NCBI GenBank assembly: GCA_965219955.1
Contig: OZ244799.1
Location: 2,560,001-2,624,000 of the forward strand
Source of the DNA: a bacterium
GTDB lineage: Bacteria > UBA8248
Reading direction: 5' to 3'
DNA: 64,000 nt
In this document: one piece after another, positions 42,050 to 64,000 of the stretch
Position numbering within the stretch: position 1 is the stretch's first letter
How the letters are laid out: each line of letters begins with the position of its first letter
Program-made: the position numbers and the translations under genes
Notes under the pieces: generated by a model
Seen by the model: the letters and a program-made list of their open reading frames with translations, nothing else
The model's database searches: none
Told to the model about the DNA's origin: nothing

Positions 42050-42084
42050 AGCGCATCCGTTAACTCTCTGGAAAGGAGAAAGGC

Positions 42085-42456: not shown

Positions 42457-42477
42457 GGACAACGAAAGGAGTGAACG

Positions 42478-43616: not shown

Positions 43617-43903
43617 GGATTTCACACCGGACGCATCGCCGATGCGGGTGTTGCGGAGGCTGCGAATAACTGCGACCCCCTGCGCTCCTCCTTGATTGTT
43701 CATCCCCCCGCGCATCCCCGTCGTGCCGAGATAAGTGCGTCGCATTTGCGACGAACCTCGATCCGGGCAACAATATCAACAGGTTAGGGGGAGGCCTGAT
43801 GCGCTCTTACGGTATAGATTCTCCGCCAGATACCAATTGCGTCGCAGACCGGTGTTCGCACGAATATGACTCCTTACAGCTTGCGTCGCAAAAACGACGC
43901 AAG
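43617..43903 (-). promoter_or_regulatory. oriT: MOBF nic site plus accessory-protein boxes
   Basis: Minus strand CGCATC-GGC-GATGCG hairpin running into TGCGTCCGGTGT/GAAA; three TGCGTCGCA boxes. Confidence 0.8.
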
Positions 43904-47927: not shown

Positions 47928-48329
47928 GTCTTGCCAGATTCGGTAATTCGCTTACCGGGCGGTAGCGATCCCACCACGCCCCGGTGTGATGTTTTCGGGA
48001 AGGCGCGTTTATCCCATTCTTTGGAGACACGGATTCGCAGAAGGAATGCGCAGGAGTTTGAATTCGTCCGCTTCCGTTTTGATTGCATATAGAGGCAGGA
48101 GAATCTTGGGCGAAATTCCAAAAAACAAATACCTTCAAGAAACTGCCAAAATTTCATGGCCATTGAAAACAACCGAATGTCTGAAAACGGCCGAAGTGCG
48201 TACCGAGGTGAGAGATTCTTCAGGAATTACCAGGAAGACTCGACAAACTCCAGACTTAATTTTTAGAGCGGAAAAAGATACTAATCAGCCGGATATTTCG
48301 TCACCCCCACTCCATCATTCTTGCCTTTT

Positions 48330-49739
48330 CTATCGCGTTCCACCGAATCCGGCAGACATATCGCTTCTCTCGACGACACCGCCCATGCCCTCATGCGCTG
48401 GTCCGAAGAACGCGCCCGTAACCTCGCCGGCATCGCCGCCGGTTTGGATGAAAGTATTCTTTCTGACGATGACGCTGTACCTGAGGTCGCCGTCATTCCA
48501 CATCGTTCCTGAATCGATATATTCCAAGTCTGTGAAGTCAATCTGTCCCCTGAGCGTTCCGATGTTGATGTTCAATCGGGTATCTCCGCTCAATGGCTCG
48601 GAACCGGGAGTCATTCCCAGGAGGCGGCCAGACCAGCTTACGCTTCCCGATAGCGACTGGTTATCGGCCAGGTCGTTTTCCGGCTTGGGGCCTCTTGCCC
48701 AGGTCTGAACCAGGCCGTTTCTCGATGCCGCGCCGAATGCGATATCTCCAATATCTCCGCGAACGTGGAACGATATATCGCTCCATGCGCCAAGTCTGTG
48801 CACGTCCGTCTCGCCCGGCTCATAAGCGGCGTAAAGGGCCTGAATCGCGTCATGGTCAACCGGGCCGAGAATGCGGTCTGAATACGAACGTGGAACACGC
48901 GAACGCATAATCGAGTCATGGTAAGTGTCGTAATCCGGGTGTCCTGGTTGTAAACCAAGGGCGTGTAGAAGTTCGTGGGCCAGCAGCAGAATATTGGCCT
49001 CATCAGTAAACTGCCCGAGCCTGTCCTCGTTTATCCATATTCTGGCGCTGTGCATTTTAACGAATGTCACTAGCCCGCCTTCATATTCGGCGGTGGATAA
49101 AGGAACCGTACGCGTTACACCGCGATATACCAGTCTGCTCGGCGGGTTCCATCGTCTGTGCGGCGCGTAGTCGATAAATATCTCTCCTTCGTCAACTTCA
49201 AAGGTGCCGACGCCTGGCGGGGACGGAACGCTGCTGAATCGCAGCCTGTTCTCACGAGGAAGATATGCGTTGATTATCTGTACTGCCTGAACGGCATAAT
49301 CCGTTTGCCTGGGGGTGGCTCCTTCCGCTACGCGGACTACCGGCGGACTTTCCCATGTATGAAGCGACGGTTCGTCTTCGTGGAGCTGGCTGAAGTTTTC
49401 GATGAATTGGCCCACGAATGCGATAACGGCCTCACGGCCCGCTCCATCCCGCACATGACCGGATGAGATAACCGTATCGCCATCCTGTCTCACTGCTCCA
49501 AGTTGGTTCGCCTCCGGCTTGACTCCGGCTCCCACATGCAAGGTATCGCTGTATTCGATTATCGGGGCCTGTCGCGCATGAACAGGAGCTTGCAACGGAA
49601 TAACAGAAGATGGAATGACAGAAGGTGTTCTCGGGATAACCGCACTCCCGCCGCCGCCTCCACCGCAACCGGGCAATATCAACGCGAACGATAGAAGGAC
49701 GGTGAATGCCTTTTGAGCGAAACGATTATTGTTTCTGAT
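48330..49739 (-). CDS. Lipoprotein with metzincin-like zinc peptidase domain and C-terminal TbpB-like barrel (start uncertain)
   Basis: Lipobox LPGC plus poly-Gly; HELLHALGLQPGH and SIM Met-turn; VTGAFFGP...GFGGTR. Confidence 0.75.
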   Translation of the reverse strand: MRNNNRFAQKAFTVLLSFALILPGCGGGGGGSAVIPRTPSVIPSSVIPLQAPVHARQAPIIEYSDTLHVGAGVKPEANQLGAVRQDGDTVISSGHVRDGAGREAVIAFVGQFIENFSQLHEDEPSLHTWESPPVVRVAEGATPRQTDYAVQAVQIINAYLPRENRLRFSSVPSPPGVGTFEVDEGEIFIDYAPHRRWNPPSRLVYRGVTRTVPLSTAEYEGGLVTFVKMHSARIWINEDRLGQFTDEANILLLAHELLHALGLQPGHPDYDTYHDSIMRSRVPRSYSDRILGPVDHDAIQALYAAYEPGETDVHRLGAWSDISFHVRGDIGDIAFGAASRNGLVQTWARGPKPENDLADNQSLSGSVSWSGRLLGMTPGSEPLSGDTRLNINIGTLRGQIDFTDLEYIDSGTMWNDGDLRYSVIVRKNTFIQTGGDAGEVTGAFFGPAHEGMGGVVERSDMSAGFGGTR

Positions 49740-49925
49740 TTGATTTCTTCTTATGAAAGGGTGAATTTTGAAGCACCATACACATACATCCGCGAGCCGG
49801 ATGCAAGGATTTCACCAGCCGCTGGAAGTACCCTGTGACCATAAACGAGCAAAGACATGAGGAGCCCCTTCGCAGAGCGCTTCTCAAACGCGTCTCATCA
49901 CCCACGGTGCCTTGCCGATGATTCG

Positions 49926-50328
49926 GACATCCAAGACGTGAACCTCGCCGATCAGACGGTCCTGCTCGGCCGCTCCAGGATGGATCAGGAGGGTGTGAGC
50001 GTCGTGCGGTACCTGGGGGAGCCGACGGGCTCATGGAGGGGGCGCTCCTGAGACCTCTCCACAAGTCGGGTCGGCTGCGCGAGGGTCGCCTCACCGAGAG
50101 GAGCATACGGAGCATCATTATCCGCCGAGCGCGCGATGCGGGGGTTCAGGGCCGCATCAGAGGGAACAACCAGAGAGTGGCAGCGCGCAGAGCCTGGCGA
50201 ATGCGGGCGCCACTCTGGCCGAGATGCAGTCCGCCGGGCGCTGGCGCTCCCCCGTCATGCCGGTGCGCTACGCGCAGGAAAAACGCCCGCGGCAGGGCGC
50301 CGTGGCGAGGCTTCGCTACGGGCGTTGA
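49926..50328 (+). pseudogene. Decayed Cre-like tyrosine recombinase, C-terminal half
   Basis: GRSRMDQEG...YLG; IIRRARDAGVQGRIRGNNQRV (eroded SGHSLRV); EMQSAGRWRSPVMPVRYA; frameshifts. Confidence 0.8.
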
Positions 50329-50454
50329 CGAACAAGGCCGCGAGTGCTCGCCGCCCTCACTCGGGATCCCGGTATTTTTTCCATACAGGTTTGGCGCCAT
50401 TCCTAGCTGATCTCCATCACCTCACGAGCGAGAGTGGTTACCTCAGAGAAAACC

Positions 50455-50585
50455 CCGCATCGAAGCGGAGATTCACCCGTTGGCCTCCGCCATGTTCACC
50501 GCACAGGCCATAATCCGTGATATGGAGAGGAGAGGAAATCGAGTAAATCAGCAGAACTATCTCTGAAGTCGCTCCCGAATTACCG
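50455..50585 (+). pseudogene. Degraded partial paralog of the RHH gene at 44052-44393
   Basis: Nucleotide similarity, e.g. ctccgccatgttcaccgcacaggccataatccgtgatatggagagg vs ctccgccatgttcactgcgcaggccatcatccgcgacatggagagg. Confidence 0.85.
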
Positions 50586-51013
50586 TGTAAATTGGCGAAT
50601 GGTTCAGGGAATCGGGCGGATTCTGTTACAGGGGACGAGTGAGTTTTCCTAAGACTTGATCCGCCGCGCTGAAGAGCATAAACCCGAGCACCATGCTCAA
50701 CAATGCGATTACCGTCCGGTAAAGGATGCTCACAGCCATCTTCCGTTCTTGCTTTTCTTTTACGCGATGAACTGTAGTTGGATGAGGACTTAAAGGACGG
50801 TGCATTGTATATGTATACAGGAAAGCCGGTCGTTTCACCTGCGCTCCGAATTATGTGCCCGCCTTTCGGTGTTTTGTCGAACGTCTGTATCCTTTGATAC
50901 AAAAGTCCGTCCTAGTGTGGCCCACCTCTGGCAAGGATTCCCGCGCTTCTCTCCGGGTTGAAGAACATATCCTGGAGGGTTTCGTTACGAGCGCGTCCGG
51001 TCGGGAGGAGAAA

Positions 51014-51111
51014 AGGCCGACACCCCTCAAAGGGTTGGGTTGGCGAAAGATGGGAATTGTTGCGACACAATCCACGAGGTAACGCCGCCAGCCGAGTCGG
51101 GGTGTCGGCCT
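51014..51111. repeat. Long stem-loop with a 13-bp perfect outer stem
   Basis: AGGCCGACACCCC / GGGGTGTCGGCCT, with inner GGTTGGCG/CGCCAGCC and ATTGT/ACAAT stems. Confidence 0.65.
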
Positions 51112-51132
51112 ACTTCCATGAAGCGTAAAACA

Positions 51133-51235
51133 GGGGCTGCCCGCTGCTCCCGTTCCCGACCCGGAGGACTCAAACTCTCAGGCCGGGAACGGTACGCTTT
51201 GCTCCATCACGAGGGAAGCACCAGCGGACAACCCC
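51133..51235 (-). ncRNA. Candidate three-way-junction 3' UTR RNA (copy A')
   Basis: Exact reverse complement of 57912-58014. Confidence 0.6.
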
Positions 51236-51252
51236 GATTTCGCTCTCTTTTC

Positions 51253-53103
51253 CTAGTTTCTCGCGCCGAACGCGCCGGCCGCGACGCCGTTCCCGAAGCC
51301 GGCGTTGAACTCGCCCACCACGGTGTGCGGCTTTTCATCATTGTCATCACCCGTCGGGCCGTGGAAGGTGGCGCTGAAGCTGCCGTCGTCACTCGGGTGA
51401 CCGCCCTTCGCCGTGCCGGACGCGGTTGCATTGGACTCATCAATGTCACCGCTCAAAACCACTTCCCAGTTGTTCTCCTCACCGCCGGAGAGCTGGAAGT
51501 TGCTGATTGTCCCGGTCAGGGTGTTCAACTGACTCGGCGCGATGGTGCCCGTAGTGTCGGTGTCCGAAACAGGAACCTGACTGAAGGTCGCCGTCAAACT
51601 CACGGCCGCCGTGAAGTGGCCCGAAGTGGCCGCATCGACACTGCCGTCCGTCGTTTTGTAGGTTTCGTGCACGTATACGCCCACGGCGTCGCCGTTGTAT
51701 TCCGCGGTGCCCAGCACACTGGTAAGGCTTGAGGCTGTGGCGGGAACAGAAGAACCCGTGAAGGTCTGGACCGCGTTGTAGGTGACCGCGCCCTCAGAGT
51801 CCGTCGTCTTCATGATCCACACGCCGAAGTGCTTGAAGTCGGCATCCGAAACGTCGGAGGTCGCGCCCTCGGCGGGAGTGAATGCCCAACCCGCGCTCAT
51901 GGCTGTTATCGCGCCTTTATCACTGACCGTGACCGTGCAATCGGCGCTGGCGCTTGCACACCGGTACGTGCCCATCGCGCCGTTGTAGGTGCCCGCGGTT
52001 TCAAACGCCTTAATCGTCTGGTTTCCGTCGGTGCCCGCGTCGCTGTCCAGCTGGAACCTGGCGAAAGTGTGAACAGTGGACGAACCGCTGCCGGCGGCAA
52101 AGGCAGACGACCTGACCAGCTTTAGCGTGTCCCCCGTCGGAACCGTGGTGAGATCGTTGTCACTTGTACCACCGACCGAGAGAGCGGTCAGGTCGTTGTT
52201 AGCGGTGCCGTCGTTATCGGCGTCCTCGCTAAGCTCTAAGTCAACGTTCAGCGCCTGACCCGCCACCTTCGCGAACGCCGTCGCCTTCGGCGCCTCGATG
52301 TCGGTGCCGATGATCACGACTTCTTCTTCCACGTTGCCGTCGTCATCCGCTTCCATCGTGCGCGTGTGCATGCTGAAGGCGTTCTTGCCGCCGCCCAGAT
52401 CCATGGCGTGCATGAACTCGGGGTCGTCGTCACCTGCGCCCGGGACGGTAATCTCGATTTCCGTACCGTCTCGGTCGCGTGAGATGCCGATACCATAGTT
52501 ATTAGTAATCGTTGTAGCATCATCGAAGGGCGCTGCCGCGCTTGTAGCCTCCGCCGCGATGGCCGCTCTCTTCGAGGTGGCCGATTTCGTCACGGCCGCC
52601 GTCGCCGCCGCATCCGCCGCAGCTTGGGCCGCCATGCCCGACGCCGTCCGGGCATTCGCCAGCGCCGCTTCCGCATCGGCCTGCTGGCTTTCCGCTACGT
52701 CAGCGAGAGCCGACGCCGCATCCTGGCTCGACGCGTCTTGCGCCGCATTGCTCGCAGCCTCGGCTGCCGCGGCCGCCTCATTCGCCGCAGCTATCGCCGC
52801 AGCCGTTGCATCGTCATCCGCGTGGTCCAGCCCCGCAGCAGCCATAGCCGCCGCGCGCGCCGCGGTCGCCGCATCAGACGCTCTCTTTTTCGTCGCAGCC
52901 AGCTGTTCCGCCGCGAGATCAGCGGCCGACGTGCACGTTCCGTCTGCGTTATAGCGCCCACCGTCCGCCTCGCACATCTCTTGGGGTGTAGGAGTTGGTG
53001 CCGGCTCTTCTGCTGCAGTCCCACCACCGCCACCGCCGCAGCCCGCCAAACCAAGGGCAGCAACCAAGAGCGCCACCATGGTAAAGCTTCTCCATTTTTG
53101 CAT
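51253..53103 (-). CDS. Surface lipoprotein with Ala-rich stalk and TbpB-like C-terminal barrel (copy 1)
   Basis: Lipobox LAGC plus poly-Gly; ends GSFSATFHGP...VVGEFNA...AGAFGARN. Confidence 0.85.
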   Translation of the reverse strand: MQKWRSFTMVALLVAALGLAGCGGGGGGTAAEEPAPTPTPQEMCEADGGRYNADGTCTSAADLAAEQLAATKKRASDAATAARAAAMAAAGLDHADDDATAAAIAAANEAAAAAEAASNAAQDASSQDAASALADVAESQQADAEAALANARTASGMAAQAAADAAATAAVTKSATSKRAAIAAEATSAAAPFDDATTITNNYGIGISRDRDGTEIEITVPGAGDDDPEFMHAMDLGGGKNAFSMHTRTMEADDDGNVEEEVVIIGTDIEAPKATAFAKVAGQALNVDLELSEDADNDGTANNDLTALSVGGTSDNDLTTVPTGDTLKLVRSSAFAAGSGSSTVHTFARFQLDSDAGTDGNQTIKAFETAGTYNGAMGTYRCASASADCTVTVSDKGAITAMSAGWAFTPAEGATSDVSDADFKHFGVWIMKTTDSEGAVTYNAVQTFTGSSVPATASSLTSVLGTAEYNGDAVGVYVHETYKTTDGSVDAATSGHFTAAVSLTATFSQVPVSDTDTTGTIAPSQLNTLTGTISNFQLSGGEENNWEVVLSGDIDESNATASGTAKGGHPSDDGSFSATFHGPTGDDNDEKPHTVVGEFNAGFGNGVAAGAFGARN

Positions 53104-53280
53104 TACAATTCCTTCAGATATATTCTTTTTGTGCTAGGAAATGTTATGCTTGTATTCCTTTAATAAACATGCAGTTACAAGCTGTTGCGATATATCGTAT
53201 TTTTGGTCGGCGCGCCTCGTGTATCTGCCGAATCGCTCTCTTACTTGTACGGTTCCGCTAGCGTTGGAAACTTCCTTGCA

Positions 53281-53610
53281 TCAATCCTCGCTTGGCACCC
53301 GCAACCAGCCTGCAATGTCGCGCGCCCCATGCAGGATACGCCAGACGTCAATCTCGGTTTCCCTCTCGACATAGAAGACAAGATACGGATACTTCTCTAC
53401 GGTACGGAAGCGCAGGCCGGTGAGGTTGAGCTCATGCGCATAGCGGGGCGAACCCGCCTCCGGTCGTTCACTGATATGGCGGATGGCATCTTCGAGCGCG
53501 TCAATGAAGGTCAGCGCAACTGCTTCTCCCGACTCGGCCAGATAATGCTCGACTGCCTCTTCCACATCGCGCTGCGCACGCTCGCGAAGGACAACCTGTT
53601 TGCCGCTCAC
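53281..53610 (-). CDS. parE: ParE/RelE family toxin
   Basis: RERAQRDVEEAVEHY...PEAGSPRY...YPYLVFY...VWRILHGARDI. Confidence 0.9.
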   Translation of the reverse strand: MSGKQVVLRERAQRDVEEAVEHYLAESGEAVALTFIDALEDAIRHISERPEAGSPRYAHELNLTGLRFRTVEKYPYLVFYVERETEIDVWRILHGARDIAGWLRVPSED

Positions 53611-53846
53611 TGCGCAGGTGTTTGGCGAACCAGGCTGCGGAGCTGGTTGAAGTAGTCCTCATCGGCGGTATTTGCCGGTGGAGATGAAGCACCTTCGAGA
53701 AGCAGACCGCGCAGATATTGGCAATCCCGGTCCTTGCGGATCAATTCGCGTACATACTCGCTCGAAGTGCTGTAGCCGCGTGCGCTGACTTGATCGTCAA
53801 CGAAGGATTTCAGTGTCTCCGGCAATGATATGTTCATCGTATTCAT
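53607..53846 (-). CDS. parD: ParD family RHH antitoxin
   Basis: TMNISLPETLKSFVDDQV..RGYSTSSEYVRELIR. Confidence 0.9.
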   Translation of the reverse strand: MNTMNISLPETLKSFVDDQVSARGYSTSSEYVRELIRKDRDCQYLRGLLLEGASSPPANTADEDYFNQLRSLVRQTPAQ

Positions 53847-53852
53847 GGTTGA

Positions 53853-53881
53853 ATTCTGCCAGTATTGGCAAATTTTGTCAA
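53853..53881 (-). promoter_or_regulatory. parDE promoter with overlapping operator palindrome
   Basis: TTGACA, 17 bp, CAGAAT; TGCCA-GTAT-TGGCA palindrome at 53857-53870. Confidence 0.6.
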
Positions 53882-53966
53882 GAATCCATATTAAACGATT
53901 AAACGAACGAGAAACGAGTTCAAGATGCGCTCCTTGGTGATAAAGCAACTAAGTAAAGGGTATCCT

Positions 53967-54041
53967 ACCTTCCTCGGCCCGCCGACGGATGACGCTTAAC
54001 CGCCCATCGTGGCCAGCGCGTTCGGTGCGAGAAAGCAATGA
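53967..54041 (+). pseudogene. Remnant 3' end of a third TbpB-barrel lipoprotein gene
   Basis: Reads TFLGPPTDDA*PPIVASAFGARKQ*, compared with TFHGPTGDD...VAAGAFGARN*. Confidence 0.7.
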
Positions 54042-54138
54042 AGTTCCACTGGAGCAAGGCGCCTTCGGCCCTAGGGCTTGACAGCGCCGTGGCGAAGTTT
54101 GTATGAGAAAAAAGTGGAGGTTCCCTGAAAATAGCTTC

Positions 54139-54244
54139 GGGGGTTGCTCATTGGTTGCTCCACATCGTCGGGAGCAAATCGTACCGACTCGCGTTACAGA
54201 GTTTGAGTCCTCTCGGCGCGGGAAGGGAGCAATGAGTGACCCCC
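54139..54244 (+). ncRNA. Candidate three-way-junction RNA, diverged copy B
   Basis: Same fold as copy A with compensatory changes; shared GGAGCAAA-N-CGTACCG and AGAGTTTGAGTCCTC. Confidence 0.6.
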
Positions 54245-54736
54245 ACTTCAGGCTCACGGCCTGAGTCTTGTAGTCCCCCGGAAGTATGGCTCGAGAGGGC
54301 GGCCCCCGAAACGCCGTCTGCGCACCCGTGGCTGTACAACTCCGTGAAAGCCTCCTGCTCCTGAGTCTGAAGGCAGGTATCTCCCAACCCCGCTTCTTGA
54401 GCAGCCCCCCATCGGTCGATGAGCGATTCTGGATTGTATGCGTGCGCCGCCAATGAGCGGAGAATTTATCGGCTTCGGCCTTGCGTGAAAACGGTGCGCC
54501 GGATCCGCCGCGCTTCTCCGGGGGCCGTAGTCACGACGTGAAGGAAACGACTCCCCGGGTCGTGATGCCGTTCGTTCAAGACTCGTTAAAGAGGTTCGCG
54601 TGAGAGGCTGGCGACTATATGAGGCGGCTCCCCTTCGAGCGCGCTGGAACAGCGTCATCGAATCACAAGCGAATCGACTGAAACCCCCGCGCCGACTCCG
54701 GGGTCTTGTCCGCACATCCTGATTGGCTGCCCGCCG

Positions 54737-54997
54737 CTAGTCGGCTCTGCGGGCAACGAGGTCCAGGGTTCTCGGCTGGTCGCAGCGGACGATACCGGTT
54801 GTTCGGGTGCCCGCGAGAGAAACCGCGAAGCCCGCCCTGCGCGCAATGTCGCCGTCCGGTGCGACCGGCAAGACCACGGGCGTCCCGGTGAGCCTGTTGA
54901 ACGCGTCGGGGGATACGATCAGTACCGGACGGGCACCCTGTCGTTCATGGCCTGCGGCGGGGTCGAGACCGACGAGCCAGATTTTCTCCCGCTTCAC
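54737..54997 (-). CDS. pemK: PemK/MazF family toxin, C-terminally truncated
   Basis: LDPAAGHERQGARPVLIVSPDAFN...GIVRCDQPRTLD; only 86 aa. Confidence 0.8.
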   Translation of the reverse strand: MKREKIWLVGLDPAAGHERQGARPVLIVSPDAFNRLTGTPVVLPVAPDGDIARRAGFAVSLAGTRTTGIVRCDQPRTLDLVARRAD

Positions 54998-55254
54998 TAC
55001 AACAACTCGCTGCCGACCGGACCGGCCTCAACCCAGGCGCGGTCCCCGGCGAGCTGCGCAGCGGTCCCGACGCATTGCGCCAGAAGCTCATCGAGTGAAT
55101 AGGCGGGACGTGTCTTGGGCGCAACGATCAGGCGACCGTCCTCCACGGCGACGTCCACCTTCGCTCCGGCCCGGAGTTTCAGTAGGTCCAGAAGGTCGGG
55201 GGGAGCGGCGAGCATGATGGAACCACCGACCTTGCGGAGATTCGTCGTATGCAT
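54997..55254 (-). CDS. pemI: PemI/MazE (AbrB-fold) antitoxin
   Basis: MHTTNLRKVGGSIML...YSLDELLAQC...PVGSELL. Confidence 0.88.
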   Translation of the reverse strand: MHTTNLRKVGGSIMLAAPPDLLDLLKLRAGAKVDVAVEDGRLIVAPKTRPAYSLDELLAQCVGTAAQLAGDRAWVEAGPVGSELL

Positions 55255-56043
55255 GGCACCCTCCGGATGATACATAAATACAACATACCGAGGCCGGCAA
55301 TGCAATTTGGAGACATTCCTGAACCGGGTTTCGGGATGGTGCGCGTCCCGGTTCTACGAAACCGAAGAAAAGAAGAGCCGGTGGAACCGATGAGCTACAA
55401 TCCTGCGCAATGCGCGAGACAGCGACAGCACTCCTCGGGCAGCAGCGTGGCGCTATACTTCCCAGTGGTGTTGTGATCGGCGAAAGTTCTTTTAGAATAT
55501 GATCCTGCCTCCTTTTGTGAGAGGAGACACGATCACGAGGAGCGTTCACGCCGCCCCGGGCTGCTGAAAAATCCCTGTCCGGAGAGCCTGTATATGAATC
55601 TATATCGCCGTGTCGACGAAGTGATGACGGAAGGCGTGGCGCCAGAGAACGATCGAGGGACGGCGACGCCGCCCGGGGGTTTTGTCCCGGCTCTTGTTTC
55701 CCGGCGGTTGCACCCAGCGGGAAGGGCGGGTAGAATCACCGAACATACGGCTTGACTTTGATGCCTCGTTATGCAAGATTTTGTCGTAATATCTATTGAC
55801 TCGTAGAGTCGGATGCCGTAATAAAGACTTTAATCATCTGGACTTCGCCCGAACCTTTACGATAAAGTAAACAATAATGAACTATCAGGGTATACAACGG
55901 GAGGAGGACATAACGAAAGATTCAGCAAAATGAAGCGGAACAGAAAACGAAGGAATACGGGAAGAATCTCAAGATAGAAAAAAGGAATAATCTACATCGC
56001 CCGCTGTGGGCAATCCAACAAGTAATTTTAGGGAGGAATTGTA

Positions 56044-57894
56044 ATGCAAAAATGGAGAAGCTTTACCATGGTGGCGCTCTTGGTTGCTGCCCTTGGTTTG
56101 GCGGGCTGCGGCGGTGGCGGTGGTGGGACTGCAGCAGAAGAGCCGGCACCAACTCCTACACCCCAAGAGATGTGCGAGGCGGACGGTGGGCGCTATAACG
56201 CAGACGGAACGTGCACGTCGGCCGCTGATCTCGCGGCGGAACAGCTGGCTGCGACGAAAAAGAGAGCGTCTGATGCGGCGACCGCGGCGCGCGCGGCGGC
56301 TATGGCTGCTGCGGGGCTGGACCACGCGGATGACGATGCAACGGCTGCGGCGATAGCTGCGGCGAATGAGGCGGCCGCGGCAGCCGAGGCTGCGAGCAAT
56401 GCGGCGCAAGACGCGTCGAGCCAGGATGCGGCGTCGGCTCTCGCTGACGTAGCGGAAAGCCAGCAGGCCGATGCGGAAGCGGCGCTGGCGAATGCCCGGA
56501 CGGCGTCGGGCATGGCGGCCCAAGCTGCGGCGGATGCGGCGGCGACGGCGGCCGTGACGAAATCGGCCACCTCGAAGAGAGCGGCCATCGCGGCGGAGGC
56601 TACAAGCGCGGCAGCGCCCTTCGATGATGCTACAACGATTACTAATAACTATGGTATCGGCATCTCACGCGACCGAGACGGTACGGAAATCGAGATTACC
56701 GTCCCGGGCGCAGGTGACGACGACCCCGAGTTCATGCACGCCATGGATCTGGGCGGCGGCAAGAACGCCTTCAGCATGCACACGCGCACGATGGAAGCGG
56801 ATGACGACGGCAACGTGGAAGAAGAAGTCGTGATCATCGGCACCGACATCGAGGCGCCGAAGGCGACGGCGTTCGCGAAGGTGGCGGGTCAGGCGCTGAA
56901 CGTTGACTTAGAGCTTAGCGAGGACGCCGATAACGACGGCACCGCTAACAACGACCTGACCGCTCTCTCGGTCGGTGGTACAAGTGACAACGATCTCACC
57001 ACGGTTCCGACGGGGGACACGCTAAAGCTGGTCAGGTCGTCTGCCTTTGCCGCCGGCAGCGGTTCGTCCACTGTTCACACTTTCGCCAGGTTCCAGCTGG
57101 ACAGCGACGCGGGCACCGACGGAAACCAGACGATTAAGGCGTTTGAAACCGCGGGCACCTACAACGGCGCGATGGGCACGTACCGGTGTGCAAGCGCCAG
57201 CGCCGATTGCACGGTCACGGTCAGTGATAAAGGCGCGATAACAGCCATGAGCGCGGGTTGGGCATTCACTCCCGCCGAGGGCGCGACCTCCGACGTTTCG
57301 GATGCCGACTTCAAGCACTTCGGCGTGTGGATCATGAAGACGACGGACTCTGAGGGCGCGGTCACCTACAACGCGGTCCAGACCTTCACGGGTTCTTCTG
57401 TTCCCGCCACAGCCTCAAGCCTTACCAGTGTGCTGGGCACCGCGGAATACAACGGCGACGCCGTGGGCGTATACGTGCACGAAACCTACAAAACGACGGA
57501 CGGCAGTGTCGATGCGGCCACTTCGGGCCACTTCACGGCGGCCGTGAGTTTGACGGCGACCTTCAGTCAGGTTCCTGTTTCGGACACCGACACTACGGGC
57601 ACCATCGCGCCGAGTCAGTTGAACACCCTGACCGGGACAATCAGCAACTTCCAGCTCTCCGGCGGTGAGGAGAACAACTGGGAAGTGGTTTTGAGCGGTG
57701 ACATTGATGAGTCCAATGCAACCGCGTCCGGCACGGCGAAGGGCGGTCACCCGAGTGACGACGGCAGCTTCAGCGCCACCTTCCACGGCCCGACGGGTGA
57801 TGACAATGATGAAAAGCCGCACACCGTGGTGGGCGAGTTCAACGCCGGCTTCGGGAACGGCGTCGCGGCCGGCGCGTTCGGCGCGAGAAACTAG
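56044..57894 (+). CDS. Surface lipoprotein with TbpB-like C-terminal barrel (copy 2, identical)
   Basis: Same 616-aa translation as 51253-53103. Confidence 0.85.
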   Translation: MQKWRSFTMVALLVAALGLAGCGGGGGGTAAEEPAPTPTPQEMCEADGGRYNADGTCTSAADLAAEQLAATKKRASDAATAARAAAMAAAGLDHADDDATAAAIAAANEAAAAAEAASNAAQDASSQDAASALADVAESQQADAEAALANARTASGMAAQAAADAAATAAVTKSATSKRAAIAAEATSAAAPFDDATTITNNYGIGISRDRDGTEIEITVPGAGDDDPEFMHAMDLGGGKNAFSMHTRTMEADDDGNVEEEVVIIGTDIEAPKATAFAKVAGQALNVDLELSEDADNDGTANNDLTALSVGGTSDNDLTTVPTGDTLKLVRSSAFAAGSGSSTVHTFARFQLDSDAGTDGNQTIKAFETAGTYNGAMGTYRCASASADCTVTVSDKGAITAMSAGWAFTPAEGATSDVSDADFKHFGVWIMKTTDSEGAVTYNAVQTFTGSSVPATASSLTSVLGTAEYNGDAVGVYVHETYKTTDGSVDAATSGHFTAAVSLTATFSQVPVSDTDTTGTIAPSQLNTLTGTISNFQLSGGEENNWEVVLSGDIDESNATASGTAKGGHPSDDGSFSATFHGPTGDDNDEKPHTVVGEFNAGFGNGVAAGAFGARN

Positions 57895-57911
57895 GAAAAG
57901 AGAGCGAAATC

Positions 57912-58014
57912 GGGGTTGTCCGCTGGTGCTTCCCTCGTGATGGAGCAAAGCGTACCGTTCCCGGCCTGAGAGTTTGAGTCCTCCGGGTCGGGAACGGGAG
58001 CAGCGGGCAGCCCC
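57912..58014 (+). ncRNA. Candidate three-way-junction 3' UTR RNA (copy A)
   Basis: P1 GGGGTTGTCCGCTG/CAGCGGGCAGCCCC; P2 TGCTTC/GGAGCA; P3 CCGTTCCCGGCCTG/CGGGTCGGGAACGG capped by GAG-TTTGAGTC-CTC. Confidence 0.6.
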
Positions 58015-58060
58015 GTTTCCTTGACATGAGACATTGTCCGTCCTCAACAACCCCTCTTCA

Positions 58061-61000
58061 ATGATGAATCCTCTCGACAAACCCTGCCCGGGTATCGCTT
58101 GCTCTTCGCGCCGCGCCCCTGGCGTCGCCATAGCGGTACTTCTCTTTATCGCCACCCTCTCTTGCCTGATGCCGCAAACGGCGTCGGCGCAGGATAGCGC
58201 CACCTACACCTTCACCTTCGAGGGCAACTGGAACCTGCGGAGCGCGCCCAAGGGGGTTCCGTCCAACGCGTATTTCACGGCGATCATCTGGCGCACTCAC
58301 GACAGCGGGATCACCTACTGGAAGCCGGGCGGCATGGCGAGCAGGGGCGTGGAGGTGGTCGCGGAAGACGGCGCCACTCATATTTTCGCCGATGAAACCA
58401 TCGCCGAAGGGGCAAGGGACCACCTGGGAACTGGCGATGTGTTCGGTGTGCCGAGAGGCGGTAATACGAGGGGGAGCACGAAAATCCGTTTCCGGAGCAA
58501 GAAATACCCCCGTCTCACCTTCCTGTCGATGCTCGGCCCCACACCGGACTGGTTCGTGGGCGTCTCGGGCATCTCGCTGCTGGATTCGAAAGGCAACTGG
58601 GTCCGTTCGAAAACCATGAGTCTGTATGCTTACGACGCCGGCACCGAGGAGGGGAGCGAGTATACGCAGAACAACCCCGCTTCGAACCCTCACGTGCCGA
58701 TATTCAGCCTCAAGGGCAAAGGCAAGTTTTCGGGTTCGAGCGTTCCGGTGGCGAGGATCAGACTCGAACTAGACGTTCCGCCGAACCCGGTAAACCTCAA
58801 GGTGGGCGGGAAAACCGCCGCCGTCATCGGCGAAGGCGGCGCACTCGATATCACGGCGGCGCTGAACAGCGTCAACGACTCGGGTGGTGCTCTCGCCATT
58901 CCCATCCGGGTACGAAGCAATGGCTCCACCGCCGGGAGCAATGACTACACGCTGGGCGCGGCTTCTGTCGCCATCGCCGACAACGCACGCACCGGTACGG
59001 TGAAGTTTACGGCGAACGATGACGGCGCCGATGAACCGCCGGAGAAGGTGATTGTGGAACTGGGCAGTTCCTTGCCGAAAGGCGTCACGGCCGGGTCCGG
59101 CAATACGGTGACGATCACCATCGCCGACGACGACGCCACGGTGGTGAGTCTCGCGCGAACCGATTCGGGCGCTATCGCCGAGGGAGGGACGGGCGCGAGG
59201 GAAAACGCCGAATTCACGGTAAGCCTGGGCCGTGCGCTGGCCGCCGGAGAGCGCATAGACGTTCCGCTGGTATTCTCCGGCGCGGGCATCACCTCGGCCG
59301 ACCTCGAGGCACTGGCATTGAAGTCCGGCAGCCACCTCAACACGGGCGTTACGCTTTCCGGGGCCGGGACGCTCACGCCCGTGATCCGCTTTCAGGGCGC
59401 GAACGCCCGGACCGCCACACTGGAACTGACGCCAGCCGACGATGACGAGGTGGAGGGCAACGAGAGCCTGCGTGTCGCCCTCGGCCCGGACGGGAGCGGG
59501 ACGAACGGGTTTGACCGCAGCGCCCTCGGCACGAACGTCGGCGGCGGATCGGACCCTCACAAAACCAGCAATTCCTTCAATCTGATACTTGAATCGGATG
59601 ACGATCCACCACCTTCGACGCCTGTTGTGAGCATAGCGGGCGGCAGCGCCGTCACCGAGGGCGGCACGGCGACCTTCACACTGAGTGCGTCTCCCAAGCC
59701 CCCGGCTGGTATTACCGTGAGGGTGACGGTCACCGACAGCGGCGCGTTCGCCGGGAGCGGTCAGTCGGGTACGAGGACGCTCGCCATGGGAACGGGCGGC
59801 ACGGCCGTCCTCACGGTCACGACGCTCAACGACGAAATCGACGAGGAGAACGGCTCGATCACGGCGACGGTCGCTGCGGGCGATGGGTATTCACCATCAA
59901 ATACCAAAGGCACGGCGACGGTCGCGGTGAGCGACGACGACTTGCCGCTGCCTGTGGCGTCGTTCTCCTCCTCCTCGCAAAGCGCTGGGGAGAACGCGGG
60001 AACGCGCAACGTGAGGGTGAACCTGTCCCGGACCCCGGCTTCGGGCTTCACGCTGAACTATTCGGTAAAGGGTACGGCAGTCTCGGGCGTGGACTACACG
60101 GCGCTTCCGGGCAGCGTTTCGGTGTCATCGGGTGCGGCGAGTGTGGATATTCCGGTGAAAATCACCGACGACGGAGCGGACGAGGGTAGCGAGACGGTTT
60201 TGCTGACACTCACCGCGGGCGAGGGCTACGAGGTGGGGAGCACGAACGTCCACACACTGACCATCGAAGACAATGACGATCCACCACCTTCGACGCCTGT
60301 TGTGAGCATAGCGGGCGGCAGCGCCGTCACCGAGGGCGGCACGGCGACCTTCACACTGAGTGCGTCTCCCAAGCCCCCGGCTGGTATTACCGTGAGGGTG
60401 ACGGTCACCGACAGCGGCGCGTTCGCCGGGAGCGGTCAGTCGGGTACGAGGACGCTCGCCATGGGAACGGGCGGCACGGCCGTCCTCACGGTCACGACGC
60501 TCAACGACGAAATCGACGAGGAGAACGGCTCGATCACGGCGACGGTCGCTGCGGGCGATGGGTATTCACCATCAAATACCAAAGGCACGGCGACGGTCGC
60601 GGTGAGCGACGACGACTTGCCGCTGCCTGTGGCGTCGTTCTCCTCCTCCTCGCAAAGCGCTGGGGAGAACGCGGGAACGCGCAACGTGAGGGTGAACCTG
60701 TCCCGGACCCCGGCTTCGGGCTTCACGCTGAACTATTCGGTAAAGGGTACGGCAGTCTCGGGCGTGGACTACACGGCGCTTCCGGGCAGCGTTTCGGTGT
60801 CATCGGGTGCGGCGAGTGTGGATATTCCGGTGAAAATCACCGACGACGGAACGGACGAGGGTAGCGAGACGGTTTTGCTGACACTCACCGCGGGCGAGGG
60901 CTACGAGGTGGGGAGCACGAACGTCCACACACTGACCATCGAAGACAATGACGATCCACCACCTTCGACGCCTGTTGTGAGCATAGCGGGCGGCAGCGCC

Positions 61001-64000
61001 GTCACCGAGGGCGGCACGGCGACCTTCACACTGAGTGCGTCTCCCAAGCCCCCGGCTGGTATTACCGTGAGGGTGACGGTCACCGACAGCGGCGCGTTCG
61101 CCGGGAGCGGTCAGTCGGGTACGAGGACGCTCGCCATGGGAACGGGCGGCACGGCCGTCCTCACGGTCACGACGCTCAACGACGAAATCGACGAGGAGAA
61201 CGGCTCGATCACGGCGACGGTCGCTGCGGGCGATGGGTATTCACCATCAAATACCAAAGGCACGGCGACGGTCGCGGTGAGCGACGACGACTTGCCGCTG
61301 CCTGTGGCGTCGTTCTCCTCCTCCTCGCAAAGCGCTGGGGAGAACGCGGGAACGCGCAACGTGAGGGTGAACCTGTCCCGGACCCCGGCTTCGGGCTTCA
61401 CGCTGAACTATTCGGTAAAGGGTACGGCAGTCTCGGGCGTGGACTACACGGCGCTTCCGGGCAGCGTTTCGGTGTCATCGGGTGCGGCGAGTGTGGATAT
61501 TCCGGTGAAAATCACCGACGACGGAGCGGACGAGGGTAGCGAGACGGTTTTGCTGACACTCACCGCGGGCGAGGGCTACGAGGTGGGGAGCACGAACGTC
61601 CACACACTGACCATCGAAGACAATGACGATCCACCACCTTCGACGCCTGTTGTGAGCATAGCGGGCGGCAGCGCCGTCACCGAGGGCGGCACGGCGACCT
61701 TCACACTGAGTGCGTCTCCCAAGCCCCCGGCTGGTATTACCGTGAGGGTGACGGTCACCGACAGCGGCGCGTTCGCCGGGAGCGGTCAGTCGGGTACGAG
61801 GACGCTCGCCATGGGAACGGGCGGCACGGCCGTCCTCACGGTCACGACGCTCAACGACGAAATCGACGAGGAGAACGGCTCGATCACGGCGACGGTCGCT
61901 GCGGGCGATGGGTATTCACCATCAAATACCAAAGGCACGGCGACGGTCGCGGTGAGCGACGACGACTTGCCGCTGCCTGTGGCGTCGTTCTCCTCCTCCT
62001 CGGTGGCTCTCCAGATAGGGACGCTGCCGGAGGGAGGCCTGTCACTCGATGAGGGGGATTCGGCAAGCTACACATTGGTGCTGACGGCGCAGCCCACGGA
62101 CCCGGTGAGAGTGACACCCGAAAGTGCGCACCCGGAGGCGGTGTCGGTGCGTCCGGCGTGGCTGGAATTCACTCCGGACAACTGGGACGCGCCGCAAAAT
62201 GTGACCCTGACTGCTGTGGTCGATGGAGACGCCCAAGACGAGAGCGTGGTTGTCTCTCACGCAGTATCGAGCGCAGACGCGCGCTACGGGGGGCTCGACG
62301 GCGGGACGGTGCGGGTGAGTGTCTCGGACGCTAGTGGACCGCAGTTCGTGTCGACGCATTTCGCGTTCACGATAGCGGAGAACACGGTGGGTCCGACGCC
62401 CGTACGCGGTGCCGGGGGTAGCCCCGGAGCGGTGCGCGCGACTGGGAACGGCGTCAGGTACACCATGGCCGGCGGCGGCGAACTTTTTCTGGTCGATGCG
62501 GAGACGGGTGCAGTGACCTATACGGGCTCGGGCGAACCGACGGGGCGCCATGAACTGACCATTCTTGCCAGCGACGCGCTGGGGCGCGTCGCCAGGACAC
62601 GGGTAAGCGTACGGGTTATAGAGGATCCGTCGTCTGTGGCCGCAGGACTGCTGCGTATTGCGCGCACCGGGGCGGACCACGTGCTGGAGGGCATCGCCTC
62701 GCGACTTGAAGCAGTGCGAAGACTGGGTATCGAGGTTCGCCTGGCAGGACAAGACATTCTGGCCCTTGAGGGGAATGATGGAACGTCAAGCCTTGCGTCT
62801 GCGATCAACTCTGCGCACGGGCGTCGAGGTGAAAGGATGGAGGCACGATCGGTCGGACGTGCCCTGTCGGAAGAGGAATTGCTGAGGGGGGTGGCGTTCG
62901 CGCTGAGCGGAGATATGACGCCGGGCGGCGCGTCCTGGTCGGCCTGGGGCAGGGGGACCGGTTCCCGATTCGACGAACAGGAGGGAGAGCGCTCCATGCA
63001 GGGCGAGGTGCTGACGGGCATCGTCGGCCTCGACAGGAGAGAGGGACGGTGGCTGACGGGCCTGGTGGTTTCACGCAGCGCAGGTGAGGGTGAGTGGAGC
63101 GGACCAGGCAACGAGCGATGGCAGATGGAGACCGACCTCACGATCCTCGCGCCCTATACGGCGTTCAGTCTCTCGGACCCGGTCACGCTCTGGGGGACGG
63201 TGGGCTACGGGCGGGGTTCGCTCGGGGTGAAGCGCCCCGGAGGCGGTTCGAGCGAGACCGACGTAGATACGACCTTGTTGGCGGCGGGCGTCCGGGGGGA
63301 GTTGATCGAGGCGCCGCCCGGGGGCGGGTTCGGCCTCGCCGTTAAATCGGACGTGCTGTGGCTGCGGGCGAATTCGGACGAGGAGAACGGTCTCTCCGCC
63401 ACGTCGCAGGACGCGACCAGGTCCCGGCTCGCTCTGGTAGCCTCGTGGCGTGGTAGATTCGAGGGTTATGGTGAACTGGGAATGAAGCTGGAGTTGGGTG
63501 GGCGTCATGAAGGAGACGACGCGGAGAGCGGTTTCGGGGTGGAAGCGGGCGTTGCCGTAAACTGGAGCGACCAGAGGCGCGGAATCGGTATTCAGGTCGA
63601 AGGACGGGTTCTGACGCTTCACGACGCCTTCGATACGAGTGAGGAAGGCCTCTCGGTTTCTCTTTCCTGGATGCCGGGCGGGACGTCGCCGCTGGGTCCC
63701 TCGATCGCGTTCCGTCTCGACAGGGGAGCGCCTTCTCCGGGTGGGCTCGATCGCCTGGCGGCGTCCGGTACCGGAACGGCCTCGGACGAAGCGACTGGCC
63801 GGGCTTACTCTTTCGAGGCGGCCTGGGGTTTCCCTGCCTTCGGTGGGCGGTTCGTGGGTAGCCCCTATATCCGTCACGGTTTCTCCTCTGCGGCGAACGA
63901 CTATACCTTCGGCTGGCGCCTTGCCCCGGCCGCGCCCGAGGCTTTCGACCTCACCCTCGGGGTTCAAGCCACGATGAGCGAGAACGGAGACGAGAATCCC
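58061..64000 (+). CDS. Large adhesin-like autotransporter: signal peptide, Spondin_N, Calx-beta-like repeats, cadherin-like domain, beta-barrel (runs off window)
   Basis: Not in the ORF track; frame consistent at checkpoints to the window end; SMLGPTPDWFVGVS and YDAGTE (spondin); WSAWGRG...GEVLTGIVGLD (autotransporter barrel). Confidence 0.88.
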   Translation, partial: MMNPLDKPCPGIACSSRRAPGVAIAVLLFIATLSCLMPQTASAQDSATYTFTFEGNWNLRSAPKGVPSNAYFTAIIWRTHDSGITYWKPGGMASRGVEVVAEDGATHIFADETIAEGARDHLGTGDVFGVPRGGNTRGSTKIRFRSKKYPRLTFLSMLGPTPDWFVGVSGISLLDSKGNWVRSKTMSLYAYDAGTEEGSEYTQNNPASNPHVPIFSLKGKGKFSGSSVPVARIRLELDVPPNPVNLKVGGKTAAVIGEGGALDITAALNSVNDSGGALAIPIRVRSNGSTAGSNDYTLGAASVAIADNARTGTVKFTANDDGADEPPEKVIVELGSSLPKGVTAGSGNTVTITIADDDATVVSLARTDSGAIAEGGTGARENAEFTVSLGRALAAGERIDVPLVFSGAGITSADLEALALKSGSHLNTGVTLSGAGTLTPVIRFQGANARTATLELTPADDDEVEGNESLRVALGPDGSGTNGFDRSALGTNVGGGSDPHKTSNSFNLILESDDDPPPSTPVVSIAGGSAVTEGGTATFTLSASPKPPAGITVRVTVTDSGAFAGSGQSGTRTLAMGTGGTAVLTVTTLNDEIDEENGSITATVAAGDGYSPSNTKGTATVAVSDDDLPLPVASFSSSSQSAGENAGTRNVRVNLSRTPASGFTLNYSVKGTAVSGVDYTALPGSVSVSSGAASVDIPVKITDDGADEGSETVLLTLTAGEGYEVGSTNVHTLTIEDNDDPPPSTPVVSIAGGSAVTEGGTATFTLSASPKPPAGITVRVTVTDSGAFAGSGQSGTRTLAMGTGGTAVLTVTTLNDEIDEENGSITATVAAGDGYSPSNTKGTATVAVSDDDLPLPVASFSSSSQSAGENAGTRNVRVNLSRTPASGFTLNYSVKGTAVSGVDYTALPGSVSVSSGAASVDIPVKITDDGTDEGSETVLLTLTAGEGYEVGSTNVHTLTIEDNDDPPPSTPVVSIAGGSAVTEGGTATFTLSASPKPPAGITVRVTVTDSGAFAGSGQSGTRTLAMGTGGTAVLTVTTLNDEIDEENGSITATVAAGDGYSPSNTKGTATVAVSDDDLPLPVASFSSSSQSAGENAGTRNVRVNLSRTPASGFTLNYSVKGTAVSGVDYTALPGSVSVSSGAASVDIPVKITDDGADEGSETVLLTLTAGEGYEVGSTNVHTLTIEDNDDPPPSTPVVSIAGGSAVTEGGTATFTLSASPKPPAGITVRVTVTDSGAFAGSGQSGTRTLAMGTGGTAVLTVTTLNDEIDEENGSITATVAAGDGYSPSNTKGTATVAVSDDDLPLPVASFSSSSVALQIGTLPEGGLSLDEGDSASYTLVLTAQPTDPVRVTPESAHPEAVSVRPAWLEFTPDNWDAPQNVTLTAVVDGDAQDESVVVSHAVSSADARYGGLDGGTVRVSVSDASGPQFVSTHFAFTIAENTVGPTPVRGAGGSPGAVRATGNGVRYTMAGGGELFLVDAETGAVTYTGSGEPTGRHELTILASDALGRVARTRVSVRVIEDPSSVAAGLLRIARTGADHVLEGIASRLEAVRRLGIEVRLAGQDILALEGNDGTSSLASAINSAHGRRGERMEARSVGRALSEEELLRGVAFALSGDMTPGGASWSAWGRGTGSRFDEQEGERSMQGEVLTGIVGLDRREGRWLTGLVVSRSAGEGEWSGPGNERWQMETDLTILAPYTAFSLSDPVTLWGTVGYGRGSLGVKRPGGGSSETDVDTTLLAAGVRGELIEAPPGGGFGLAVKSDVLWLRANSDEENGLSATSQDATRSRLALVASWRGRFEGYGELGMKLELGGRHEGDDAESGFGVEAGVAVNWSDQRRGIGIQVEGRVLTLHDAFDTSEEGLSVSLSWMPGGTSPLGPSIAFRLDRGAPSPGGLDRLAASGTGTASDEATGRAYSFEAAWGFPAFGGRFVGSPYIRHGFSSAANDYTFGWRLAPAAPEAFDLTLGVQATMSENGDENP
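59598..62002 (+). repeat. 675-bp in-frame tandem repeat, about 3.6 copies
   Basis: Unit starts at 59598, 60273, 60948, 61623; one difference seen (60851 A vs G at 60176 and 61526). Confidence 0.97.

Follow-up and report, generated by a model that had tools for sequence, protein, structure and literature searches.

The 64,000-nucleotide (nt) stretch analysed here, which we call the window, is taken from contig OZ244799.1 (assembly GCA_965219955.1, positions 2,560,001 to 2,624,000), and its own coordinates are used for the locus throughout. It comes from a sponge-associated bacterium and carries a surface-lipoprotein gene in two inverted copies, each followed by the same structured RNA element; relatives with this element bear Nitrospinota record titles. 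How does a gene come to stand twice in a genome within limits that fall exactly on functional edges, and what keeps the two copies identical? As an event, the duplication is an ordinary one (inverted paralogues, concerted evolution), but it is clean and independently confirmed, and belongs to an uncultured sponge symbiont. We regard it as probable that the arms arose by inverted duplication at the DNA level, are kept identical by gene conversion, and owe their outer end to the modular nature of the element. The most solid new result is the element itself, a well-supported structured RNA family of about 103 nt that is absent from Rfam 15, shows strong covariation, and, in one Nitrospinota-labelled genus, sits at the 3′ end of a multigene family of surface lipoproteins.

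Identity and limits of the inverted arms

Base-by-base comparison of 51133–53113 with the reverse complement of 56034–58014 found 1981 of 1981 bases equal, bearing out the two inverted 1981-base-pair (bp) copies claimed in a preliminary description of this DNA.

51133–53113, minus strand: left arm (1981 bp) of the inverted pair; matches the right arm at every base; contigs break at both ends
56034–58014, plus strand: right arm, 1981 bp, identical to the left arm, with contig breaks
56034–56043, plus strand (mirrored at 53104–53113, minus strand): AGGAATTGTA, the Shine-Dalgarno (SD) site and its spacer, the first bases of identity

Identity opens at AGGAATTGTA-ATG and closes on the last C of the closing stem, P1, of the RNA element. 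The junction sequences and the fold agree on this point with the preliminary description, which had run the identity from the ribosome-binding site and start codon to the last base of P1. The duplicated unit comprises the SD site, a gene for a 616-amino-acid surface lipoprotein, and a 103-nt RNA element folded as a three-way junction. Beyond the arm ends, the adjoining 60 nt mismatch at 42/60 and 40/60 positions (67–70%), and local alignment of the 400-nt flanks does no better than shuffled sequence (upstream score 18, shuffle mean 18.8; downstream score 17, shuffle mean 18.9), in line with the earlier statement that the regions upstream of the copies are unrelated. The tract of identity is the entire homology, with no residue of it in the flanks. 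A repeat search on 48000–61000 returned a single inverted pair, whose 1999-nt arms include 18 extra nt that match at chance level (10/18), and BLAST extends the outer end by 5 nt with one gap, CCCC(T)GTTT. The junction sequences contain no direct repeat at the outer or inner ends of the structure, and no transposase turned up among the scanned open reading frames (ORFs) of the 6.9 kb; there is no target-site duplication.

Four public runs cover 49500–59500: X1, which is source-like, and X5, X6, and X8, three sponge metagenomes from a different study. The public runs listed for this genome include none of RNA. The data are k = 31 graph contigs (Logan) in which neighbours overlap by 30 nt, and the repeat contig is placed at only one of the two arm positions; for this reason the left arm is only partly covered in X1 and X5, and the right arm in X6 and X8. 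In X1, X6, and X8, contig ends fall at 51162, 53084 (X1), 56063, and 57985, each of them an arm end extended by the 30-nt overlap. Depth of the arm contig is 13.5–14.6 in X1 (flanks 5.8–10), 26.2 in X6 (flanks 10–10.8), and 49.9 in X8 (flanks 21.7–29.1), which amounts to 1.4–2.5 times flank depth over the three runs and 1.9–2.4 times in X6 and X8. With four junction contigs and about double depth of the repeat in all three, an assembly artefact is ruled out and the duplication is real.

The arm contig of X6 and X8 also dates the structure. It is a single contig of 1979 nt that differs from the window by 26–27 substitutions and 4 gaps (1.3%) with its ends unchanged, although contig building can pop bubbles and could hide a few differences between the arms in these runs. 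Elsewhere the same strain differs from the window by 0.6% in the left flank, by 0.3% and 0.7% in two pieces of the spacer, and by 7.5% at the start of the large downstream gene, where a 15-nt insertion follows 58059. Since the repeat of this diverged strain is a single double-depth contig with equal ends, the duplication with these ends is older than the split of the X6/X8 strain from that of the window. The arms differ between strains and apparently not within a strain.

The spacer is unstable between strains. X5 has a 515-bp deletion (55145–55659) that takes part of mazE and its upstream region; one of its contigs crosses the spacer into the right arm with the inner end unbroken, and a branch lies at 57356, equivalent to 51791 in the left arm. 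X6 and X8 break at 54933–54936, inside mazF and with a 4-nt overlap, and at about 53114–53131 beside the left arm, with unlike sequence beyond. For comparison across species we used 22 other genomes of the genus and 18 genomes from outside it. None of the 22 congeners has a close orthologue of the duplicated gene (best match 70% nucleotide identity over about 1.1 kb), and there is therefore no empty site or alternative orientation to compare.

The 3′ element and its lipoprotein family

Behind each copy of the gene lies the element, and behind the left copy a further domain.

51253–53103, minus strand: left copy, coding sequence of the 616-amino-acid surface lipoprotein (lipobox LAGC; TbpB/fHbp-like predicted fold)
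56044–57894, plus strand: right copy, coding sequence of the same protein, P0001 (TbpB/fHbp-like predicted fold)
57912–58014, plus strand: structured 3′ element of the right copy (minimum-free-energy z = −6.5; covariation; model R1, 106 bits)
51133–51235, minus strand: structured 3′ element of the left copy (covariance model, 102 bits)
50988–51132, minus strand: domain 2, a second conserved structured domain of the 3′ untranslated region (UTR), from its fold and 75–80% matches at dozens of family loci

The 103-nt fold is a three-way junction in which P1, the closing stem, has 15 bp, the hairpin P2 has 6 bp, and the long hairpin P3 carries an invariant apex, GAGUUUGAGUCCUC. Rfam 15 gave no match at gathering thresholds over the whole window, and permissive scans of both 3′ regions returned only irrelevant matches (E = 0.12–7). 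In an alignment of 26 distinct element sequences from 17 genomes, 95.2% of cells are paired, against 35–63% when the partners are slid by 1–3 columns; 17 of the 35 pairs show compensatory change, and 0 of 500 shuffles reach the observed values. Frequent G-U pairs place the predicted fold on the mRNA-sense strand.

In this genome the covariance model picked out 12 copies in sense orientation, scattered along the chromosome on either strand. Seven follow an intact lipoprotein gene and two a lipoprotein gene interrupted by an insertion sequence (IS); two more form a tandem pair behind a decayed lipoprotein C-terminus, and one is an orphan in the spacer (54139–54240, plus strand). The preliminary description had been silent on this orphan, on domain 2 being present only on the left, and on the element as a dispersed family. 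Among the congeners, 16 of 22 carry the element in 3–16 copies each. Outside the genus it is absent from the two other genera of the family that were searched, and the remaining 16 genomes gave one weak match of 39 bits (1/18 genomes outside the genus). A scan that started from the protein instead found the element at 6 of 56 homologue loci, always 71–86 nt past the stop codon and on the strand of the gene; these six are confined to records titled Nitrospinota or untitled ‘bacterium’, and the other 50 loci are without it. In a genome of another family an element stands about 280 nt after a homologous gene. This distribution marks the element, as modelled here, as a lineage-specific 3′ module of the lipoprotein family and not as part of a phylum-crossing cassette. 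The alignments show no flanking duplication around the 103-nt element alone, and the 3′ block is the most conserved part between paralogues (92–95%).

The tandem pair consists of more divergent elements about 180 nt apart (genome 3669898–3670184) behind the decayed C-terminus (..GEFQGAFGTH..). Similar pairs or triplets occur in at least 10 congeners, and the arrangement is conserved across the genus.

What follows the element varies from locus to locus. Domain 2 is closed by a 12–13-bp stem and followed by UUUUCU; at the present locus only the left copy has it, and the right arm runs directly into the start region of the spondin/Calx-beta gene. Behind 37 elements, about 18 have domain 2 (class A), about 8 a second type of sequence (class B), 2 a third (class C), and 9 a unique one, and in all 37 similarity is lost within 0–6 nt of the end of P1. 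The alignments identify the element as a discrete module joined to varying downstream neighbours, with its 3′ edge as the natural module boundary.

The element most likely acts as an RNA on the mRNA-sense strand, as a 3′-end structure or in the regulation of the operons that encode the lipoproteins. Inspection by eye shows about 3–7 T in the 10 nt that follow P1, in all flank classes, where base composition predicts about 2, and this U-rich run suggests a 3′-end or terminator-like role. As a terminator the element would have a ‘loop’ of about 70 nt, and class A copies have a better terminator after domain 2. The pattern scan for promoters and terminators picked out neither the element nor any site in the two upstream regions, and its totals were near shuffle expectation.

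A second possibility concerns the apex loop UUUGAGUCCUC (57975–57985 and 51162–51172), which is complementary to the extended SD site GAGGACUCA of the first gene in lipoprotein operons. Its complement GAGGACTCA is the extended SD in 6 of 6 ‘lipoA’-type first genes of element-bearing operons in this genome (leaders at genome positions 1631047, 1775441, 2359220, 2928909, 3302420, and 4270424). It recurs at 5 of 6 element-bearing loci of relatives, the sixth having GAGGGCTCA, with which a G-U pair could still form. Genome-wide, GAGGACTCA is found 35 times against about 33 expected; with no enrichment, the idea of pairing depends solely on the position of the matches. The elements themselves account for ten of the 35, and many others stand just before start codons, as is partly expected for an SD-like word. 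At the duplicated gene, what could pair with the loop is limited to GAGGA in the right copy and AGGA in the left. Pairing between the loop and the extended SD is conceivable, but we consider it rather unlikely. A limited literature search returned nothing relevant, and the novelty claimed for the element is its absence from Rfam 15.

The conserved 3′ Sma/Cla repeat of Neisseria pilE and pilS offers a comparison. There too a variable surface-protein family has a conserved block 3′ of its copies, and the element could likewise serve as a homology anchor. Unlike that repeat, the element shows RNA-type covariation, and neither an expression locus nor an array of silent, promoterless donors was identified here.

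The duplicated gene is predicted to encode a Slam-type (TbpB/fHbp-like) surface lipoprotein. This assignment follows from its lipobox, from fold matches of the predicted structure, and from the presence of a Slam gene in the genome. The signal peptide of P0001, MQKWRSFTMVALLVAALGLAGC, ends in LAGC and is followed by a glycine run; a database entry for the protein, P0002, begins 8 codons later. Sequence searches with P0001 returned no Pfam family, no PDB hit, and only sub-threshold signal-peptide matches in NCBIfam. An AlphaFold2 model built with 15 homologues (mean pLDDT, the predicted local distance difference test, 81.4) has long helices at residues 60–187 and then beta domains, with the C-terminal handle and 8-stranded barrel of the Slam-dependent proteins. 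Foldseek matched it to TbpB, LbpB, fHbp, NHBA, HpuA, and hemophilin (E from 5.6e-5, probability 0.85–1.00), the whole-chain TM-score (template-modelling score) being low because the protein is multi-domain. The genome encodes one SlipAM/Slam translocon (PF04575, 94.8 bits; genome 2998776–2999645), which adjoins a 68%-similar paralogue and not this locus. The protein thus resembles TbpB, LbpB, fHbp, HpuA, NHBA, and hemophilin in its lipobox, in its predicted C-terminal handle and barrel, and in belonging to a mosaic multigene family. It differs from known Slam lipoproteins in lacking a sequence-level Pfam or PDB match, in its long N-terminal helical domain (residues 60–187), and in a family that occurs in sponge symbionts of many phyla.

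About 21 lipoproteins of the genome share a CGGGG lipobox and a G(A/S)FG C-terminus. Between these paralogues the 5′ and 3′ ends of the genes are conserved and the middles unalignable. The MQKWRSF N-terminus and the AGGAATTGTA leader of the duplicated gene occur in no other family member of the genome. A metagenomic protein, P0003, equals P0001 over its first ~165 residues and is about 55–60% identical thereafter, which makes it a mosaic allele. Together with the paralogues of conserved ends and variable middles, it indicates that recombination shuffles these genes and, as read from the alignments, that the family evolves by segmental, domain-level exchange. Such mosaic recombination in a family common to many symbiont phyla bears on surface variation inside the host.

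Homologues occur in metagenome-assembled genomes (MAGs) of sponge symbionts titled Alpha-, Gamma-, and Deltaproteobacteria, Chloroflexi, Nitrospira/Nitrospirales, Nitrospinota, Binatia, and Thermodesulfobacteriota. Across at least 8 differently titled phyla or classes of sponge-associated MAGs (loci L041–L096), the TbpB/fHbp-like family retains 32–56% identity. These occurrences suggest extensive horizontal spread of the lipoprotein family within the sponge microbiome.

Origin and upkeep of the duplication

In the account that we favour, one member of the Slam-type family would have been duplicated in inverted orientation, together with its 3′-UTR element, at the DNA level. Ordinary homologous recombination between the arms, in the form of gene conversion, would then keep them identical up to the limits of the sequence they share. 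The outer limit would fall at the closing stem because the downstream neighbour of the element varies from locus to locus: the left copy has kept domain 2 and the terminator, as is usual, and the right copy is without them. The inner limit at the SD site would reflect chance, or the minimum of a gene that still functions.

Family members with different downstream modules share sequence only to the end of the stem, and the outer boundary therefore needs no special mechanism. The arms, moreover, changed together between strains, which is the signature of gene conversion. The earlier proposal that the copies are homogenised is supported here by a repeat that is 1.3% diverged and still a single contig of about double depth, with flanks that differ by 0.3–0.7%. 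The tufA and tufB genes of Salmonella and Escherichia coli are inverted duplicate genes that RecA-dependent gene conversion keeps identical. The present arms resemble them as two inverted copies of a whole coding sequence that are identical within a genome and change together between strains, both hallmarks of concerted evolution, and between which recombination can invert the intervening segment. They differ from tufA/tufB in lying 2.9 kb apart, in including a 3′ RNA element, in ending at an SD site and a stem, and in encoding a member of a variable surface-protein family.

Several observations weigh against our account. To the exact base, the two limits coincide with functional edges, where the SD begins and where the stem ends; an ordinary duplication would not be expected to do this, and the inner boundary at the first SD base in particular is an unexplained coincidence. 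All other paralogue pairs include leader and terminator regions, and this pair is atypical. Identity between the arms of X6 and X8 is read from one double-depth contig, in which popped bubbles could hide differences, and the unbroken inner right end of X5 with its branch at 57356/51791 means that not every strain need have two full arms.

One alternative keeps gene conversion and dispenses with the inverted duplication of one member. Two old family members with different leaders and 3′ contexts would have been converted to identity up to the limits of their ancestral homology, and the arm ends would not be duplication junctions. A shared element with variable downstream neighbours fits this proposal, since ancestral homology would stop at the stem; so do the mosaic alleles and the paralogues with conserved ends and variable middles, which point to frequent conversion, and the concerted change between strains. 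Conversion, however, needs homology outside the converted tract, and the outermost bases should then differ, whereas none do. The AGGAATTGTA leader and the MQKWRSF N-terminus, found in no other family member of the genome, also speak against it, and a 5′ homology edge exactly at the SD would be a coincidence here as well. We consider this origin unlikely.

The preliminary description proposed instead that a transcript-shaped cassette was copied by a mechanism using the 3′ element. In this scenario a promoterless unit, from SD to stem foot, would have been copied by reverse transcription of its own mRNA, or through cleavage at the stem foot by an HUH-type enzyme or a recombinase, and would have entered its new site lacking both promoter and terminator. 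The ends do match the edges of a trimmed mRNA, with the SD at −10 and the stem end followed by (T)GTTT; the arms are without a promoter and without the terminator domain of the family; and the 3′ edge of the element is a recurrent breakpoint across 37 copies. The genome also contains a group II intron and other reverse transcriptase (RT) sequences.

Comparison with other duplications gave a different picture. A mechanism of this kind had been expected to leave other identity tracts ending at the same two boundaries, and they end elsewhere in this genome and in two others, G013 and G020. Within this genome, the 3′ blocks of other paralogue pairs (92–95%) start 100–230 nt inside the coding region and run about 150–170 nt past the element, and their 5′ similarity starts at least 80 nt upstream of the start codon. 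Tracts of 91.9–98.6% in G013 and G020 run 319–495 nt past the element and stop 14–56 nt upstream of it; in both genomes inverted and direct segmental duplications of lipoprotein loci recur.

The enzymes that such copying calls for were likewise not found in linkage. The genome has three RT matches, two of them halves of a single group II intron RT that an insertion has split (18 kb to the right) and the third lying at genome position 2322885. The shape of the unit would fit a retro-copy; of these RTs one is broken and the other is the match at 2322885. The nearest tyrosine integrases are about 11–13 kb to the right, among IS256 and IS110 copies. No recombinase or intact RT was found in or next to the unit, the family scan of the spacer having covered its four toxin–antitoxin ORFs, all of which matched toxin–antitoxin families; a target-site duplication is likewise absent. 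In addition, 50 of 56 homologous loci of other phyla are without the element, arguing that gene and element are not one mobile cassette, and the element has RNA-type G-U pairing and conserved loops and not the layout of a recombination site. Copying of an mRNA-shaped unit through its transcript or a stem-foot enzyme is in our judgement very unlikely, and it keeps that small probability because the inner boundary at the SD is unexplained. A weaker form of the idea, in which the loop UUUGAGUCCUC would pair with the extended SD GAGGACUCA and couple the 3′ and 5′ ends of the mRNA, is somewhat easier to entertain, if still doubtful. If transcript copying were true, this would be the first natural mRNA-shaped gene duplication in bacteria and a possible model for the origin of promoterless cassettes; recurrence of SD-to-stem limits elsewhere would bear on that same old question.

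That an assembler collapsed or mirrored one copy or two diverged paralogues is scarcely credible, since two-kilobase perfect repeats carry that risk only in general and the four junction contigs and near-double depth hold in the source-like run and in two independent metagenomes.

We compared the unit with several further known systems. The integron gene cassette is a promoterless ORF with an attC hairpin bearing RYYYAAC/GTTRRRY cores, and stands in one-way arrays next to intI. The unit shares with it a promoterless ORF, a minimal leader, a folded element at the unit boundary, and interspersed toxin–antitoxin modules. It is unlike a cassette in that its element is a three-way junction with conserved loops and not attC, its copies are dispersed in both orientations, and other family members carry their own leaders and terminators. 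An attC site, a single imperfect hairpin with R″/R′ core sites at the cassette boundary, was rejected, as the element is a three-way junction and its boundary, CCCC|GTTTCC or CCCC|TGTTTT, does not fit GTTRRRY. Nor do the 12 copies, dispersed on both strands, form a one-way intI/attI array, although IntI itself was not searched for. Site-specific invertible switches of the Hin/Gin, Fim, and Piv types were set aside, the arms being 1981 bp and not short, the four spacer ORFs scanned against families all being toxin–antitoxin genes, and the nearest integrases lying about 11–13 kb to the right. An IS, a composite transposon, or a miniature inverted-repeat transposable element was rejected for want of a transposase among the scanned ORFs of the 6.9 kb and of a direct junction repeat. 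A diversity-generating retroelement was rejected on the 0 differences between the arms and a nearest RT that is the split group II intron RT 18 kb away.

Mirrored duplications with 92–96% identity and with ParDE and MazEF homologues also mark lipoprotein islands in G020 (36–130 kb, loci L100–L103) and in G013 (1.92–1.97 Mb, loci L097–L099). Inverted organisation of such islands seems to be recurrent in the genus, without sharp ends.

Possible spacer inversion and the surrounding island

The spacer of 2920 bp holds two toxin–antitoxin modules, ParE/ParD and MazF/MazE, as the preliminary description reported. All four genes lie on the minus strand, in tandem with the left lipoprotein copy.

53114–56033, no strand: spacer, 2920 bp, between the arms; would invert if the arms crossed over
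53281–53610, minus strand: ParE toxin gene (PF05016, E = 5e-14)
53607–53948, minus strand: ParD antitoxin gene, true start probably internal (TIGR02606, E = 1e-11)
54139–54240, plus strand: orphan third copy of the element (type 2), behind no lipoprotein gene (covariance model, 100 bits)
54737–54997, minus strand: MazF/PemK-like toxin gene, 86 amino acids, profile positions 1–86 of 109 (PF02452, E = 2e-18)
54997–55305, minus strand: MazE antitoxin gene (NF052488, E = 8e-13)
58034–64000, plus strand: ‘adhesin’ gene, for a large surface protein of the spondin_N/Calx-beta type; perfect tandem repeats of 675 bp; runs off the window

The adhesin gene had been placed 46 bp past the right copy, and this distance holds for its ATG; a TTG start lies at 19 bp. 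Crossing-over between the arms would flip the spacer and exchange the two upstream regions before identical coding sequences. The regions exchanged would be about 170 nt behind parE on the left and, on the right, a 738-nt A+T-rich region divergent from mazE. Of the two, only the right-hand one could give read-through into the gene of the large surface protein, since domain 2 is missing behind the right copy. Inversion of the spacer, with a swap of the promoter facing the adhesin, is correct in its geometry and plausible in its mechanism. No contig spans an arm, and junction sequences are equal in both orientations.

Homologous recombination between long inverted repeats inverts the sap locus of Campylobacter fetus and underlies the ‘flip-flop’ of plastid inverted repeats. 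As in these systems, long inverted homologous arms surround a segment with upstream or promoter sequence, and no dedicated invertase is required. At sap, inversion puts one promoter before different S-layer genes, whereas the two arms here specify one and the same protein and are distinguished solely by what lies downstream. With its perfect inverted arms and the gene of a giant spondin/Calx-beta protein directly downstream, the 2.9-kb segment is a candidate for an expression switch driven by recombination.

A working phase-variation switch would go further, with flips that change the upstream region driving the right copy and the spondin/Calx-beta protein and an arrangement kept by selection. 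The arms are long, perfectly identical, and inverted, with signs of ongoing recombination between them, and the two upstream regions are unrelated. Behind the right copy, which is without domain 2 and terminator, the gene of the large surface protein follows at once; between them the scan called nothing promoter-like, although TTGACA, paired with a poor −10 hexamer, can be made out at 58021–58026. The arrangement is also kept in the diverged strain. Against this, no linked invertase was found among the ORFs scanned, both arms encode one protein and only levels of read-through could change, and the content of the spacer varies between strains by deletion and insertion, unlike that of a conserved switch cassette. 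We judge a selected switch of this kind to be improbable on balance, about as much so as an origin from two old family members.

The locus lies in a rearrangement-prone, repeat-rich island of lipoprotein genes, toxin–antitoxin modules, IS elements, and integrases. Within the spondin_N/Calx-beta gene, 59598–62002 consists of 675-bp tandem repeats, at least 3.5 units that are 99.9–100% identical. Past domain 2 of the left copy, an ORF at 50411–50893 (154 amino acids, no Pfam match) has an 84% paralogue at genome 2631739–2632225 beside tandem integrases. ARAGORN found no tRNA or tmRNA in the window. The region 40310–43736 holds a repeat family of about 1.35 kb (at least 8 genomic copies, about 79.5% identity) that adjoins a second family of about 1.8–2.1 kb (5–6 copies, 87–91%); both are probably IS or other mobile elements. 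The group II intron (RF02005, 127 bits) lies at genome 2636029–2640147, its RT ORF split in two by an insertion of about 2 kb, in an island that also holds two tandem integrases, IS256 copies, and an IS110 fragment abutting another copy of the element.

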